41,465 nucleotides of DNA, taken from IMG/VR virus record IMGVR_UViG_2917881069_000006. One strand, given 5' to 3'. Both the position numbers and the translations under genes were made by a program. Source of the DNA: a virus (Duplodnaviria > Heunggongvirae > Uroviricota > Caudoviricetes). Below the pieces are notes generated by a model, which ran no database searches, was not told the origin of the DNA, and saw only the letters and a list, made by a program, of their open reading frames with translations. Shown here piece after piece: positions 1-13,648 of the stretch; position 1 is the stretch's first letter; every line of letters starts with the position of its first letter.

Positions 1-318
1 TCATCGAAACAACAGCCAGACCAGCAGACACGCTATCACCGGCACAGCAAAATCCATCAGGCTTGCCACATCCCATGCACGAGGATCAAAACCGCCCCAC
101 CACGGCATATTCATACGCTTGCCATGCCCGAACATTTCAATCCAGCGATATTCTGCCTGGGTATGTTCACGAGCGATGAAGAACGTACAACCAGCTATCG
201 CACCGTAAGCCCAGTTTCCGGTAAAAAGACCAACCAGTACCTGCGCAGCCACAGCACAAAGCGCGTGAAGGAAAGGTGTTATATCCATTTTCATCCTACC
301 CAATAAAACGGGACTCAC
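1..318 (-). CDS. hypothetical small hydrophobic protein (family not recognised)
   Basis: 105-codon ORF whose stop codon is window positions 1-3; two hydrophobic stretches (CAVAAQVLVGLF, AVPVIACLLVWLL); start ambiguous (Met codons at 318, 294, 288). Confidence 0.35.
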   Translation of the reverse strand: MSPVLLGRMKMDITPFLHALCAVAAQVLVGLFTGNWAYGAIAGCTFFIAREHTQAEYRWIEMFGHGKRMNMPWWGGFDPRAWDVASLMDFAVPVIACLLVWLLFR

Positions 319-330
319 GGCCCCTTAATA

Positions 331-1372
331 TTATTTAGACGCAAGCGCCGCCTCAATTGCAGATAATCTTTGTCTTAATTCTGCGTTTTCTTCTTCCAGT
401 GCTGTTATTCTGTCGTCTGACTCTCTGGCTACCTGAACAAGCAAGCCAGTAACACCAGAATAATCTACTGTGTAGTAACGCTCGCCTTCTTCCCCTTCCG
501 AGCCGTTTCCACCGTCCTGATATTTCATTGCGGAGCCTACAACTTCCGGGATTGCTTCCAGAGCTTCCTGTGCAATGACACCTGCATAGGGCATACCGTT
601 TTCCTTAAGGGTATAGGTATAGCCGTTCATCTTGCGGATACGATCTGTTGCATTATCAATCACCTGAAGATTATCTTTCAGATCCCGGTCGGAAGCCTGG
701 TTAAAGGCGGTGGCATGACATGCACCATTAACAGCGAACGCATAGGTATTATCGGTTTGTTTCTGACCGTAGAACATATAAGCGCCACCATCAACACCGA
801 CTTCATAAACAACAGGACGGCTGGAGTTGCCCCACAATTTAGCAGTAACACCAGCATAAGCGGTTCCCTGTGTGTTTAATGTCATGGTTGACCCATGATT
901 AGCGTATTTGATTTGTAATGTGTCTGTGTAGTCAAACTTAATAAGCGCGTTACTTCCCCGCACACCATACGACATGAGACAGTTCCCCATCTTAAGGTAA
1001 CCATCACTGCCTGGAAAAATTAATGTTCCGCCGTAAAGATTACTAAAGTCCCACCAAATACCCTTTTCGCCATCTTTTACGTGTAGTCGCGCCATTGCAG
1101 CTTCATCGCCTGCAACATTTTTTTCGGGTATAAAACTCAGTATATACATCGATTTTATCGGCAGTCTTATGAATTGAACGATGTTTACCACCAAAGACAG
1201 TACCAGTTGTCGGCAAGGTATTATCTTTTTTGGTAGCATCCCAATCACCTAAAACCTCGCGTTTACCATCAACATAGGATTTTGTTGCGTAGCTTTCTTG
1301 ATCGGTTTTTAATTTACTAACATCGGATTTTAGCGTTTTGATGTCATCAGGAATTACTGTTACGCTCGCCAT
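331..1372 (-). pseudogene. tail fiber protein with C-terminal intramolecular-chaperone (peptidase S74-like) domain; frame broken at an A7 run
   Basis: Protein-like N-terminal frame (MASVTVIPDD...TVFGG...DVYTEFYTR; RBS GAGGGG before ATG at 1372) stops just after the homopolymer at 1118-1124 (T7 on plus, A7 on minus). The adjacent frame continues KNVAGDEAAMARLHVKDG... to a C-terminus with S74-chaperone-like signature (SDRDLKDN...YTVDYSGVTGLL...ALEEENAELRQRL). Span is 1042 nt (3n+1); A6 would give one ORF of about 346 aa. Confidence 0.5.
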
Positions 1373-1382
1373 GTATTGCCCC

Positions 1383-1661
1383 TCAAGCCCATTCACGAAG
1401 CGGAGCATCAAGAATCACTACATTTCCGGAAAATGGTGATGCGTCCAGCTTTTCATCTAAGATTCTAATATTTACAAAATAACCGTCGCGTCGTTGATAA
1501 ATTGGTTCGTCGTCGGCAGTTCTGCCGACTTCATCGAAAGCGAATCCAATTTCATCAATCAGGAGTTGATCTTGCAATACTTCGTTATCTTCCCAATTAA
1601 TTTCATTCAAGAATGCTTTATAGTCTTCCCGATCTCGAAATTTCAGTGTTAAATCTTTCAT
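1383..1661 (-). CDS. hypothetical protein, translationally coupled to stf (possible fiber assembly or accessory protein)
   Basis: 92-aa ORF; its ATG overlaps the stf stop codon (ATGA junction at 1658-1661); acidic protein, no recognisable motif. Confidence 0.4.
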   Translation of the reverse strand: MKDLTLKFRDREDYKAFLNEINWEDNEVLQDQLLIDEIGFAFDEVGRTADDEPIYQRRDGYFVNIRILDEKLDASPFSGNVVILDAPLREWA

Positions 1662-3738
1662 TCTACTGATTCCCCCATTTGTGCATCAGTTAACGCTTTA
1701 TGCCAAATCCTGAAATTTCGGATGTGTCCGAATATATGACGCTCACCAGTACTGGTTTGCCCACCAAATCTTATCGTAGCAGTTGGTGCTACATGAATAT
1801 AATCTGTCCTTGCAGACGATGAAAAAACAGAATTGCAAAACGCTTGAGTATCTCCATTTTCTTTACACCTAAATCCAGAGATAAACTTTCGATTTGTTGT
1901 TTTTACATACTTATTAATTCTTGTAGCGCCATCACCCATATCAACATAGGGCGATCCAGTATCAACCGCAGTCCCACCACGTAGACCATAAATTATGGCC
2001 TGCCCCGCTTTTTGACCAGTAAAATCCATTATTCTAGGTGCGGCATTTGGCGGAGAATCCCATTCCCAATTAAGATTGGTTTCGCACATTACAGTAAGCG
2101 GTAAATTGTAGATGTTGTTTTTGATTGGGATCGTAACTAAGTCACTCGCTCTTGTCGTTGTCGCAGATCCAGAAATAATAAAAGAAGAAGCACTGCTACC
2201 AACTTCAAATTGCGGTGTCGTTATCATCCACTGATCACCAATCTGTATATCTCGTTTATGCGCACCAACTTCAATTCGACCATAAAATGTTTTGTCTTCT
2301 GCGGTTTTATAAGTCAAAGATACAAACAACCATCCATTGGATTCAATTTTAGTATATACTTTCGTCGAGCTTCCGCCTGCAGGAGTTCCTAAAACTTCGC
2401 CCGTTTCCGCATTTATATAGGCATTCGAAGAAAGAGTATTACTAGAGCCATCCTCATTTACATAAGCAATCCTCGGATATACTGTCAGAATCCCATCACC
2501 AGCAACTTTTTTAACTCGGAAGGATATTGTAAGTGATTCCCCTGCCTTTGCTGGCATGGATCTTGGATATCCAGTTGAAATAAATGTAGCGCGTCCGGTA
2601 GTGCTTGTTTCGGCTGCAACATTAATAAGACCATAGGTAAAACCAAATTCATCTTTACCATTGGTTATATTCAATTGTGCGGCTTTATTCCATAACGACG
2701 GATTATTAGAATCTGCAAATGAATTGCTTCGTTGTCCTTCAATCAGTAAACCATCTTTTTCAAATCGTGGTTCGTCGATTGCTGCAATTTTCAGTTCCCC
2801 GGATTTATTGATATATGTAGCAGTTGATGCACGTTTAAACTTAACAATCTTGTCGCCAGGCATCGTTATTTCATCGTCACCAATAACAATCTTTTTATAT
2901 GATGGCGAAAAGCCCGTAATCATATCCAGCGAATCATTAAACGGAATCCAGACATCAGGCAACGGCGGAACTATATTCACATATGGTTTTACAGTCACTT
3001 CCGCTGCCGCTTCTGCGCGGTCTGCCGCCGCTTCCGAACGTGTCGCCGCCGCGACGGCTTCATCCTTTTTCTGCCCGGCCTTTGTTGCGTCTGCTGCGGC
3101 CTCCTGCGCTTTTGTGGTGGCGATTCCGGCATTTTCAGCGGCTGACTCTGCATTACGGCGGGAAGCCTCTTCACTGTTTGCGGAGGCTTCTTCTGACGCT
3201 CGGGCATTTGTCTCTGAACGTTCTGCTGCTGTTGCTGCGTTTTGTGCGGCTGTTTTTGAAGAGGCTGCCGCTTTCGCGCTGTTACCTGCATTCGTCTCTG
3301 ACGTTTTCGCCGCGTTCTTCGATGATTCCGCTGCAGTTTCGGATTTCTTTGCCGCCGCTGCGCTCTGAGAGGCAGCTTCAGCGTTTCGTGCCGTTTCTTC
3401 CAATATTTCCTCAAAACGGCGCAATGCCTCAGGCATGACATCATCTTCCGTCATGGCACCGAGAAAATCATTCAGCGTACCTGGTCTGGAACCTTCATAG
3501 ACGGTAATGATCCCGGCATGTGAAGGCGGAAAACCTTCAACCAGCAGGGTGACGCTGTACTGGCCATACTCAACATCCATGCTGTACGCCCGGCTTCATC
3601 CGGATTTTCAGAGGCTACCGTGTTCACCAGTACCGTGGTGCTGTTACGCTTTGCCTTCAGTTGAATAGTGCAGTTCTGTATTGGTTTTCCCGCACCATCT
3701 TTCAGCACACCTGAGATTTTTACTGCTGCCATATCCAC
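1658..3738 (-). pseudogene. stf: side tail fiber protein Stf, N-terminal 50 codons out of frame with the body
   Basis: N-terminal fragment MAAVKISGVLKDGAGKPIQNCTIQLKAKRNSTTVLVNTVASENPDEAGR matches the lambda Stf N-terminus, then changes frame near 3584-3588; the body (640-aa ORF from MDVEYGQYSV...) carries the Ala/Ser/Glu-rich KSETAAESSKNAAKTSE repeats typical of Stf and a divergent C-terminal receptor-binding region. Confidence 0.6.
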
Positions 3739-9939: not shown

Positions 9940-10268
9940 CAGTTCACCACCTGTTTAAACTCTGCGCTGAACTCAACACGCAACATACTGACCCGCGACG
10001 TCCATTTTGCGCAGGTCACCTTTATCTGCCGCCAGTCATAAGGCGGCGTCCACAGAAAGGCTTTCCAGCCTCCGTGCTCTGCCAGAAACGATTCCAGCGC
10101 CGTGGCCTCCCAACGGGGGACAGAAATCGTCACGCTGTACGTTTTCAGGTTGGCATTCAGCCCGGCAGGCGCGCGCTGGGAGTAACCATCACCAAAGCGC
10201 ACCTCCCTGACGGAAGGAGCCGAAGCCACATCCATACCCGGTTTCACTTTCCAGCGGAAGGTTTTCAT
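9939..10268 (-). CDS. M: tail tip protein M
   Basis: 109 aa, same length and position as lambda M. Confidence 0.9.
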   Translation of the reverse strand: MKTFRWKVKPGMDVASAPSVREVRFGDGYSQRAPAGLNANLKTYSVTISVPRWEATALESFLAEHGGWKAFLWTPPYDWRQIKVTCAKWTSRVSMLRVEFSAEFKQVVN

Positions 10269-12826
10269 CGCCCACCTCCGGAGAACAGACCACCATCACG
10301 CATCTGCCCGGTCACGACATCCATTGCCGCCTTACGGGCTACGTCATAAACCGCCTTCAGCGCCTGTGGCCCTATCTGACCGTTCGTGCCGTCGTTATTA
10401 ATCACCACATGGTTATTCTGCTCAAACTTCCCGGACGCCTGCGACCGGCTGTCCGCCAGACTGCCCGGTGTACCGACATAACCACCGGTGGCATAGCCGC
10501 GCATCAGCCGGTAGAGATTCCCCACGCCAATCCGGCTGGTTGCCTCCTTCGTGAAGACAAATTCACCACGGTGAACAATCCCGGCAGGCTCATATTTGCC
10601 ACCGGTTCCCGTAAAACCTCCGGTCGCAAAATGGAATTTCGCCGCAGCAGCCTGAATGGCTGTACCGCCTGACGCTGATGCGCCGCCACCAACAGCTCCG
10701 CCAATGGCGCTGCCGATACTCCCGACAATCCCCACCGTTGCCTGCTTAAGCAGAATTTCTGTCATCATGGACAGCACGGAACGGGTGAAACTGCGCCAGT
10801 TCTGCTCACTGCCGGTCAGCATCGCCGCCATATTCTGCGCAATACCATCAAAGGTCTGCGTGGCAGCACTTTTAACCTGCGACATACTGTCCGTGGCACT
10901 CTCTTTCCACTCGCTCCAGCCGGACTTCAGGCCAGCCATCCAGCTCCCGTTAAGCTGGTCTTCAGCCGCCCAGGTCTTTTTTCTGCTCTGACATGACGTT
11001 ATTCAGCGCCAGCGAATTATCGCCATACTGTTCCTTCAGGCGCTGTTCTGTGGCTTCCCGCGCTGCCTGCCGGTCAGTAAGCCCCCGTTTTTCGCATCAA
11101 TGGCTGTCCGTTTTGCCCGTTGTTGCTGTGCGAACTTATCCGCCTGCTGCGCCAGCGCATTCAGGTGCTCCTGATACGTGACCTTATCGCCAAGTGCAGC
11201 CAGCTGGCGTTTGTACTCCAGCGTCTCATCTTTATGCGCCAGCAGGGATTTCTCCTGTGCGGACAGCTGGCGACGTTGTGCCGCCTCCTCCAGTACCGCG
11301 AACTGATTTTCCGCCTTCCATAAATCCCGGCGCTGCTGGCTGATTTTCTCATTCGCTCCGGCATGCTTCTCCAGCGTCCGGAGTTCTGCCTGAAGCGTCA
11401 GCAGGGCCGCATGAGCACTGTCTTCCTGACGATCGCCCGCAGACACCTTCACGCCGGACTGTTTCGGCTTTTTCAGCGTCGCTTCATAATCCTTTTTCGC
11501 CGCCGCCATCAGCGTGTTGTAATCTGCCTGCAGGATTTTCCCGTCTTTCAGTGCCTTGTTCAGTTCTTCCTGACGGGCGGTATATTTCTCCAGCGGCGTC
11601 TGCAGCCGTTCGTAAGCCTTCTGCGCCTCTTCGGTATATTTCAGCCGTGACGCTTCGGTATCGCTCTGCTGCTGCGCATTTTTGTCCTGTTGACTCTGCT
11701 GTTCAGCCTTCTTTCTGGCGGCTTCAAGCGCAAGACGGGCCTTTTCACGATCATCCCAGTAACGCGACCGCGCTTCATCGTTAACAAAATAATCATCCTT
11801 GCGCAGATTCCAGATGTCGTCTGCTTTCTTAAACGCAGCCTCTGCCTTAATCAGCATCTCCTGAGCGGTATCAGGACGACCAATATCCAGCACCGCATCC
11901 CACATGGATTTGAATGCCCGTGCTGTCCTGTCTGCCCAGGTTTCCAGCGTGCCCATGTTCTCTTTCAGGCGTCGGGTCTGGTCATCAAACCCTTTCGTTG
12001 CGGCCTCGTTCGCCGCCTGCAATGCCCCGGCTTCATCGCCGGAACGCTGCAACTGAGCAACATACGCAATCTGCTCCGCCGTCACGTTATGGAACTGGCG
12101 CGCCATCGCCGTCAGCCCCGACGTCGGGTCAGTGGTCAGCTTCCCGAAGGCTTCAGCAACCTTGTCCACCTCCACGCCGGATGCAGAGGAGAAACGCGCC
12201 ACACTCTGGCTGATGGACGCAATCTGAGCCTCACCGCTTACCCCCGCCTTAACCAGTGCACTGAGTGACTCGCTGGTCTGGTTAAACGTCAGCCCTGCCG
12301 CCTGCCCGGCTCTGGACAGGACCAGCATACGATCTGCCGTCAGACCTGACTGATGACCGGAAAGGACCAGCGTTTTGTTGAACTCAGACAGGGTTGAGTT
12401 GCCCTGATACCAGGCATACGCCAGCGCACCGGTCGCCACTGCCAGCGAGGTGGCCCCGACCATCGGCAGGGTGATCGCACCGGCAAGCCCCCTGAACATG
12501 GGGATCATCCCGCCGAAGGAGTCCTTAACCTGACCACCCTGTTGCAGCAGGATCAGCCACGGACTTTGCCCGCCTGCAAGCTGCGTGGCCACGTCGGTGA
12601 ACTGTGCAGGAAGCATACGCATGGCGGCTTTATACTGTCCGACGGAAATCCCCGCTTTCTGTGCAGCCAGCGCCTGCCGGTTCATCGACTGTTCAACGAC
12701 TGCCGCTGTTTTTTTCGCATCACTTTCCGTACCGGAAAAATGACGCCTGACTCTGGCCATCTGCTCGTCAAATCTGGCCGCATCCAGACTTAAATCAACG
12801 ACCAGATCGCCTACCGGTTCAGCCAT
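10265..12826 (-). pseudogene. H: tail tape measure protein H, reading frame interrupted by two compensating single-base indels
   Basis: Total span 2562 nt equals an 853-codon gene, but the frame from ATG 12826 hits TGA at 11036-11038. The middle frame is open only between two homopolymers (plus-strand C5T5 at 11082-11092 and T6 at 10977-10982) and reads RGLTDRQAAREATEQRLKEQYGDNSLALNNVMSEQ; the original frame resumes as KKTWAAEDQL...MAGLKSGW to the C-terminus. Confidence 0.75.
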
Positions 12827-13253
12827 ACCGGACTCCTCCTGCGATCCCTTCTGATACTGTCATCAGCATTACGTCATCCTCCGTCATGTCCGCCACATCC
12901 GGGGAAGCGGGGATAACTTTATTCCCGTCCGGACCAAAGCGGACGCCTCCGGCAAGCCCTGCCGCTTTCTGCATCAGCACATCATCTTCAGGCTCTTCGT
13001 CAGCCTCACACCGATTCAGCAGACTGAAATCCAGCGGATGCATCTCCGGATCGCTGAAAAACAGGCTGAGCACGGTGTACGTCAGCCCGGAAAAGTGCAT
13101 ATCCAGCAGAACATCATGAAAATAATGGGTACTGTAAAAACGGTGCCAGTCGGCATACTCCGTGGATGACATCCCGGCAAGCATGGCGCGCCAGTCGGGT
13201 CGCCCCATCTCACGCGCCAGTTTCAGGGCAAAACTCAGCTCACCGTCGAACAC
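12819..13253 (-). CDS. T: tail assembly chaperone T segment, expressed as G-T fusion by -1 frameshift
   Basis: ORF FDGELSFALKLAREMGRPDW... has no ATG start (the track start is GTG inside the slippery site); lies in the -1 frame relative to G immediately after GGGAAAG. Confidence 0.85.
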   Translation of the reverse strand: MFDGELSFALKLAREMGRPDWRAMLAGMSSTEYADWHRFYSTHYFHDVLLDMHFSGLTYTVLSLFFSDPEMHPLDFSLLNRCEADEEPEDDVLMQKAAGLAGGVRFGPDGNKVIPASPDVADMTEDDVMLMTVSEGIAGGVRYG

Positions 13254-13648
13254 TTTCCCGCAGAAACAGGCTCTGCAGGCCCGGCGTCCTCTGCCTGTTC
13301 AGGGGCATTATTCACCACAAACTCATACATACCGGACAGCCGGTACACCACGTTTTCAGCATGAGAAATTGCCTCTGTGGGCCAGGTGGTAAGCACTTCC
13401 TGCTCAATCTGTTTAACGGCTTCATTCATGGACGGCATCTGCGTCTTCTTCGGATGGTTATGCCACAGAGACATCGCCACCACAAAAGCGCCGGTTCTGA
13501 TGACGTCTTCCACAGTAAACTTCCGGTTACTGTCGGATTCTGCCTGCTGTTTCATCAGGGCGAGATGCTCAATACGCTGCAGGGCTGACAGTTCAGAAAG
13601 CGTGACGGTCACGCCGTTATATTCAAATGATTCGGTTTTCAGGAACAT
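13235..13648 (-). CDS. G: tail assembly chaperone G
   Basis: 137 aa, MFLKTESFEYNGVTVTLSELSALQRIEHL..., lambda G-like; contains the slippery site near its 3' end. Confidence 0.9.
   Translation of the reverse strand: MFLKTESFEYNGVTVTLSELSALQRIEHLALMKQQAESDSNRKFTVEDVIRTGAFVVAMSLWHNHPKKTQMPSMNEAVKQIEQEVLTTWPTEAISHAENVVYRLSGMYEFVVNNAPEQAEDAGPAEPVSAGKCSTVS
13253..13259 (-). promoter_or_regulatory. programmed -1 ribosomal frameshift slippery heptamer G GGA AAG (G to G-T)
   Basis: Plus strand ctttccc at 13253-13259 is GGGAAAG on the coding strand, 18 nt before the G stop; downstream -1 frame is the T ORF. Confidence 0.75.

Follow-up and report, generated by a model that had tools for sequence, protein, structure and literature searches.

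A tail-fibre gene split at an A7 run in an Escherichia prophage record: one gene of a known family and a probably artefactual frameshift

Judged from its sequence, the pair of open reading frames lying between positions 331 and 1,372 of the window (the whole stretch of DNA that was analysed, 41,465 nt) is a single lambdoid-prophage tail-fibre gene belonging to a known family, phrog_4563, and thus to a type of gene that has already been described. The two ORFs almost certainly make up one gene that is interrupted at a homopolymeric tract, and the split amounts to a commonplace homopolymer frameshift in a known gene type, which is probably artefactual. The gene lies on the minus strand, where a GAGGGG ribosome-binding site precedes its ATG (1372-1370) and the TAA at 333-331 ends it. 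Its features, as read from the record, are the following.

1372..331, minus strand: tail-fibre gene, frameshifted in the record; 346 aa when read with A6
1118..1124, minus strand: A7 homopolymer within the gene (T7 on the plus strand); A6 in all intact relatives, where it codes for R-K-N
1103..1372, minus strand: ORF of the N-terminal fragment, 89 aa (MASVTV...YTRKKCCRR*); hypothetical protein TGC04943.1 in the source record
1105-1103, minus strand: premature TGA reached in the shifted frame after 89 codons, 7 nt upstream of the Met93 codon
331..1095, minus strand: downstream part, called as 254 aa from the internal Met93; TGC04942.1, annotated as 'peptidase S74'
538..693, minus strand: Pfam match to Peptidase_S74 (PF13884), residues 227-278; the full chaperone region extends to position 334

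The preliminary description had given these limits for the split gene and had stated that frame continuity needs A6 instead of A7, and both statements proved exact when the sequence was re-read. The second frame is open from the homopolymer through to the terminal TAA, and deletion of one A joins the two frames into a continuous 346-aa ORF reading ...EFYTRKNVAGDEAAMARLHV..., in agreement with the proposal that A6 restores the reading frame. Runs of A or T of at least 7 nt occur 13 times in the whole window, against an expectation of 8.0 +/- 2.8, and the A7 run is therefore unremarkable by itself. The non-random feature is the occurrence of the A7 run exactly at the frame break, together with the presence of A6 at the same place in relatives. 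As a matter of speculation, termination followed by reinitiation at Met93 could, if the A7 is real, give an N-terminally truncated product of 254 aa.

The location of this second fibre gene downstream of stf, also put forward in the preliminary description, was confirmed (stf 3738..1658, fibre gene 1372..331), and the gene forms part of a conserved cassette with the following other members.

1658..3738, minus strand: stf side-tail-fibre gene (phage_tail_N, phrog_1419), frameshifted in the record by a TT to T change within 3577-3591
1383..1661, minus strand: 92-aa gene (phrog_1361) between stf and the fibre gene, a conserved cassette member
1..288, minus strand: 95-aa gene (phrog_1443) downstream of the fibre gene, the last member of the conserved cassette

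The order stf, 92-aa gene, fibre gene and gene of about 95 aa is kept in E. coli GIMC1405, 142, C4, 15.TR.026_OXA and CFT073. The fibre gene is a single 1041-nt CDS in GIMC1405, 142, C4 and CFT073 and a shorter CDS of 705 nt in 15.TR.026_OXA; intact relatives encode one fused 346-aa ORF, and not two separate genes with intact frames. The family is widespread, the fibre-gene region being matched in 735 of 5,426 complete E. coli genomes. In a related contig (L004) that reaches beyond the left end of the window, a 429-aa flagellin gene (Flagellin_N, Flagellin_C; contig positions 7427-8716) adjoins the fibre end of the prophage and is followed by dinI-like and emrE-like genes.

At the tract itself, the GIMC1405 and strain-142 alleles read ACC AGA AAA AAT (A6, coding T-R-K-N). 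The C4 sequence matches the window without a difference over about 100 nt on either side of the tract, yet it carries A6, and its product is an intact protein of 346 aa. The closest relative, an independent Logan contig from run SRR9333243 (L013), carries an identical 92-aa neighbour gene and shows 99.5% identity across 2.7 kb; inside the fibre gene it differs from the window by A6 versus A7 and by three substitutions near the 3' end, and is otherwise identical. The presence of A6 in intact relatives indicates that the fused frame is ancestral and that the window has exactly one extra A. The gene is also mosaic. Over its first ~340 nt it shares 95.6% identity with E. coli C4, with nucleotides 100-330 showing just ~60-70% identity to the strain-142 and GIMC1405 alleles, and the remaining ~700 nt are far nearer to the latter two alleles than to C4 (79%). 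Compared with the phrog_4563 proteins WP_073461898.1 (C4) and WP_001306186.1 (CFT073), which carry the E. coli annotation 'tail fiber domain-containing protein', are likewise of 346 aa, are encoded in the same cassette and share 74-82% identity with it, the window copy therefore differs in two respects: it has A7 instead of A6, and so is split in the record, and it combines an N-terminal third resembling C4 with a remainder resembling GIMC1405 and 142 (L001, L002).

The repaired protein matched the phrog_4563 profile ("tail fiber protein") over positions 1-346 of 346 with E=5e-194. The preliminary description had further predicted an intramolecular chaperone domain of the S74 type, and a match to the PF13884 profile was found: Peptidase_S74 scored 49.8 bits on the repaired protein, against a cutoff of 22 (E=4.1e-13; profile positions 1-57 of 58). 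In an alignment of 13 sequences, the protein and 12 homologs with identities down to 40%, Ser227, Asp228 and Lys232 of the sequence SDRDLK (S-D-x-x-x-K motif) are invariant, as are, wholly or almost, several positions of an N-terminal T-x-I-P-x-D-I...L-K segment; on the minus strand, the codons of Ser227 (693-691) and Lys232 (678-676) were checked directly. An alignment-profile search against the PDB returned the distal subunit of the S16 long tail fibre (6f45) across the chaperone region (E=1.6e-7), where SDRDLK aligns with SDRRIKK, as well as the fibre repeats of T4 gp34 over residues 172-221 and the auto-processing domain of MYRF (7dc3). The S74 region occupies the C terminus (residues 227-346), with predicted helices at 229-248, 263-273 and 305-345. 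An AF2 monomer model of a homolog (P0001) reached a mean pLDDT of 58, with values below 50 over residues 218-310, and a Foldseek search of this poor model against the PDB gave no match at E<=0.001. A beta-strand predicted in the same low-confidence model at residues 73-85 spans the codons of the tract, which suggests that the break would not fall at a domain linker.

By its domain content, the intact 346-aa product would consist of a conserved N-terminal helical segment, a beta-rich fibre or receptor-binding region (approximately residues 38-214) and the C-terminal S74 chaperone (227-346). S74 domains act as intramolecular chaperones that are released by autoproteolysis. If endosialidase and T5 pb1 fibres are a guide, the C-terminal domain would assist the trimeric folding of a fibre of about 226 aa and would then cleave itself off at Ser227 using Lys232; the roles of these two residues at the cleavage site come from published endosialidase work. 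The arrangement resembles that of known S74 chaperones (K1F endosialidase, T5 pb1, S16 6f45 and the eukaryotic MYRF) in placing at the C terminus a PF13884 domain that bears the S-D-x-x-x-K motif and leads into a long helix; in contrast to K1F endosialidase and T5 pb1, the passenger here is a short fibre of ~226 aa rather than a large endosialidase or an L-shaped fibre. Experimental characterisation of this family (phrog_4563) was not found in the literature. Several distant homologs (P0042, P0061, P0079, P0084, P0100 and P0114) carry a variable number of 7-residue repeats of the 'TLKSDVS' type in the N-terminal helical segment (alignment columns 20-60), a pattern that suggests length variation of a coiled-coil stalk.

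Two explanations of the extra A have to be weighed above all, namely that it was introduced by sequencing or that it is a genuine mutation. Homopolymer-length miscalls are the characteristic error of Ion Torrent sequencing. The data of Escherichia sp. E2661 (PDIG00000000, SRX3260346), from which the window comes, were generated on this platform as single-end reads of 35-400 nt at 40x coverage, and were assembled with MIRA and SPAdes (PMC6639607). A separate de Bruijn assembly of run SRR6148326 contains a contig (L014) that is 100% identical to the window from 2906 to 1119 and stops after the sixth A of the tract, as it would if some reads had A6 and others A7; the other contig ends of SRR6148326 that were viewed do not lie at homopolymers. 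This run shares with E2661 an exact Lom protein found nowhere else, and hence probably represents the reads of E2661 itself or of a sister strain. In addition, comparison with intact relatives, which for the five lesions outside the fibre gene are only 90-97% identical to the window (97% for the nearest tape-measure relative), revealed six frame-breaking lesions in the whole window, all of them changes of +/-1 in short runs. The five lesions in other genes, in plus-strand coordinates, are listed below.

~3584: stf, TT to T; window 3577-3591 reads GGGCGTACAGCATGG, relatives GGACGTTACAGCATGG
~11087 (11081-11095): tape measure (gene 12826..10265, minus strand), CC to C, adjoining A5 and G5 runs
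~10979 (10973-10985): tape measure (same gene), A5 to A6
~27718 (27711-27723): ylcG, C4 to C3, relative to E. coli SCU-102
~29974 (29965-29979): ybcK recombinase, A4 to A5, relative to E. coli SCU-102

The lesion in stf splits the phage_tail_N domain over two frames, and the two tape-measure indels, 105 nt apart, are compensating, with two stop codons in the out-of-frame segment between them. Look-ups of the shortened products of the tape measure (596 aa) and ybcK (466 aa) returned no record. The other genes compared each align in one frame across practically their entire length, and neither an IS insertion nor a large deletion nor a nonsense substitution was detected when the window was set gene by gene against two intact relatives. 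A GGGAAAG heptamer, the classical lambda G/GT site of -1 programmed frameshifting, lies where the gpG-like and gpT-like ORFs overlap (window 13253-13259, minus strand) and appears intact.

Given the 40x single-end Ion Torrent data and the five further single-base run-length changes in this 41-kb prophage, a miscall is the most probable explanation. On the basis of assemblies and relatives, we consider it likely that the split is a sequencing or assembly artefact, in which a homopolymer-length miscall would have been carried into the consensus, and strain E2661 probably has an intact A6 fibre gene. A genuine replication-slippage mutation, which would make the gene a recent pseudogene in a prophage decaying together with its stf, tape-measure, ybcK and ylcG genes, appears rather unlikely. 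Two of the changes, TT to T and CC to C, affect short runs in which consensus errors are less typical, and real +/-1 slips have taken place at the homologous tract in other lineages (A7 in P0155, A5 in P0151), each being found in an assembly and in a sequencing run. This reproduction in independent samples makes a genuine mutation plausible, as does the occurrence in the database of other single frameshifts scattered over the N-terminal region. Accessory fibre genes are moreover dispensable: in lambda PaPa, a frameshift mutation in stf removes the side fibres without killing the phage (Hendrix and Duda 1992, as cited in PMC12617516). The case at hand is similar in that an accessory lambdoid tail-fibre gene is split by a frameshift, but in lambda PaPa the mutation is verified and lies in stf, whereas here it is the gene after stf that is affected and the change is probably a sequencing artefact. 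Against true slippage stand the Ion Torrent origin of the data at 40x, the restriction of all six lesions in an otherwise complete 41-kb prophage to single-base changes in run length, with no insertion sequence, deletion or nonsense change found alongside them, and the break of the other assembly (L014) exactly at the tract. Only the tract and three substitutions separate the gene from the intact L013 allele, so that any mutation would have to be very recent.

The preliminary description had also raised the possibility that the tract is biologically meaningful, on the grounds that tail-fibre genes are classical phase-variable or fast-evolving loci. This suggestion found no support. Proteins identical to the 89-aa and 254-aa products are confined to one contig, that of the source record (Escherichia sp. 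E2661, GCA_004745185.1), and A6 is present in the 494 copies of sister alleles in complete genomes: complete E. coli genomes contain 112 copies of allele 2, none with A7, and 382 copies of allele 1, none with A5. Slipped alleles do exist, and were located by a search with the N-terminal fragment. One protein cluster (P0155, 14 members, ...RKKY*) corresponds to allele 2 with A7 and is found in GCA_012375035.1 and ERR10498628, and a second (P0151, 2 members, ...LKNG*) corresponds to allele 1 with A5 and is found in GCA_027903135.1 and SRR32610249. Slipped products therefore number 14, 2 and 1 sequences, compared with intact clusters of 2132 and 906. Other rare N-terminal fragments are shifted elsewhere, among them one at another A6 run of the fibre gene (P0174).

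Other candidates for split alleles were examined and rejected. The 254-aa clusters P0024-P0030, with hundreds of members, are not widespread split alleles, because their representative contigs either start at a contig end (L005, L006) or follow an IS10-like insertion and have an intact A6 (L007-L010). In several E. coli assemblies (L007-L010), this IS10-like element (terminal ...AATCATTAGGGGATTCATCAG, with a DDE_Tnp_1 transposase) interrupts the fibre gene near codon 27, some 170-180 nt upstream of the tract, and results in an annotated product of 254 aa. An IS insertion was also considered for the contig starts of L005 and L006 and was dismissed, since the identical sequence lies in an intact gene in CFT073 and in more than 350 complete genomes; paralogous prophage copies and read-level length variation are possibilities for these breaks. 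The 84-85-aa 'partial' proteins on ~255-nt contigs, tried as N-terminal pieces, turned out to be C-terminal chaperone fragments representing collapsed repeats. For a Pin/Gin-type inversion site at the tract, considered because pinQ lies nearby in some relatives, no palindromic crossover-like sequence was seen by eye, and no invertase adjoins the window copy.

The distribution of slipped alleles bears directly on the idea that the tract is a contingency switch, with A6/A7 slippage turning a second receptor-binding fibre on and off. The homologous position has undergone three independent changes of length in three alleles (the window included), and three draft contigs, each from a different assembly, have one end within the homologous A-tract (L005 1-30, L006 1-30 and the last 10 nt of L014, at window 1119). 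The end of L014 at the sixth A would fit on and off lengths occurring together in a single culture, but Ion Torrent sequencing gives rise to just this type of length noise. These observations are outweighed by the lack of slipped copies among the 112 and 382 complete-genome copies and by the rarity of slipped products relative to the intact clusters. A tract of A6-7 is short for high-rate switching in a mismatch-repair-proficient enterobacterium, A6 is accounted for by the coding of R-K-N or L-K-K, and slippage of the second A6 run of the same gene (P0174) points to generic homopolymer behaviour. The resemblance to the homopolymer contingency loci of Haemophilus, Neisseria and Campylobacter is that the frame is set by the length of a mononucleotide run; the difference is that the tract here has just 6-7 nt, that hundreds of genomes stably keep it at A6, and that close relatives are not polymorphic for an on and an off state. 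We thus regard such a switch as exceedingly improbable in the window. More generally, it is very unlikely that the A6 at codons 83-85 is a genuine low-rate on/off switch of a second receptor-binding fibre in lambdoid prophages; on that reading, the alleles that arose independently in three lineages (A7, A5 and A7) and the draft contigs broken inside the tract would reflect real length heterogeneity within populations. The tract is instead an ordinary slippage hotspot with rare, lineage-restricted events.

A deliberate split would mean that the A7 run is used for +1 ribosomal frameshifting or transcriptional slippage, so that an 89-aa protein is made alongside the complete fibre, or else that each ORF is a gene of its own. 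As read from the sequence, the wild-type R-K-N would be restored if tRNA-Lys re-paired in the +1 frame on CGA AAA AAA U, and Met93, which lies 7 nt after the premature stop, is conserved among close alleles (at least 70% identical). The out-of-frame arrangement, however, is conserved in no relative, all those examined having A6 in frame except for the rare slipped alleles; the full-length phrog_4563 match shows one protein, and the beta-strand predicted at residues 73-85 in the low-confidence model runs across the tract codons. A programmed or two-gene arrangement is accordingly the least credible of the readings considered, with hardly any probability left to it.

For users of the record, the outcome is that GenBank lists two proteins for E2661 (TGC04943.1 and TGC04942.1) that almost certainly belong to a single tail-fibre gene. 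Caution is warranted in taking gene splits in the E2661 Ion Torrent assembly as biology in the absence of resequencing. If all six lesions were errors, no detected inactivating lesion would be left, and the prophage could be functional rather than defective.
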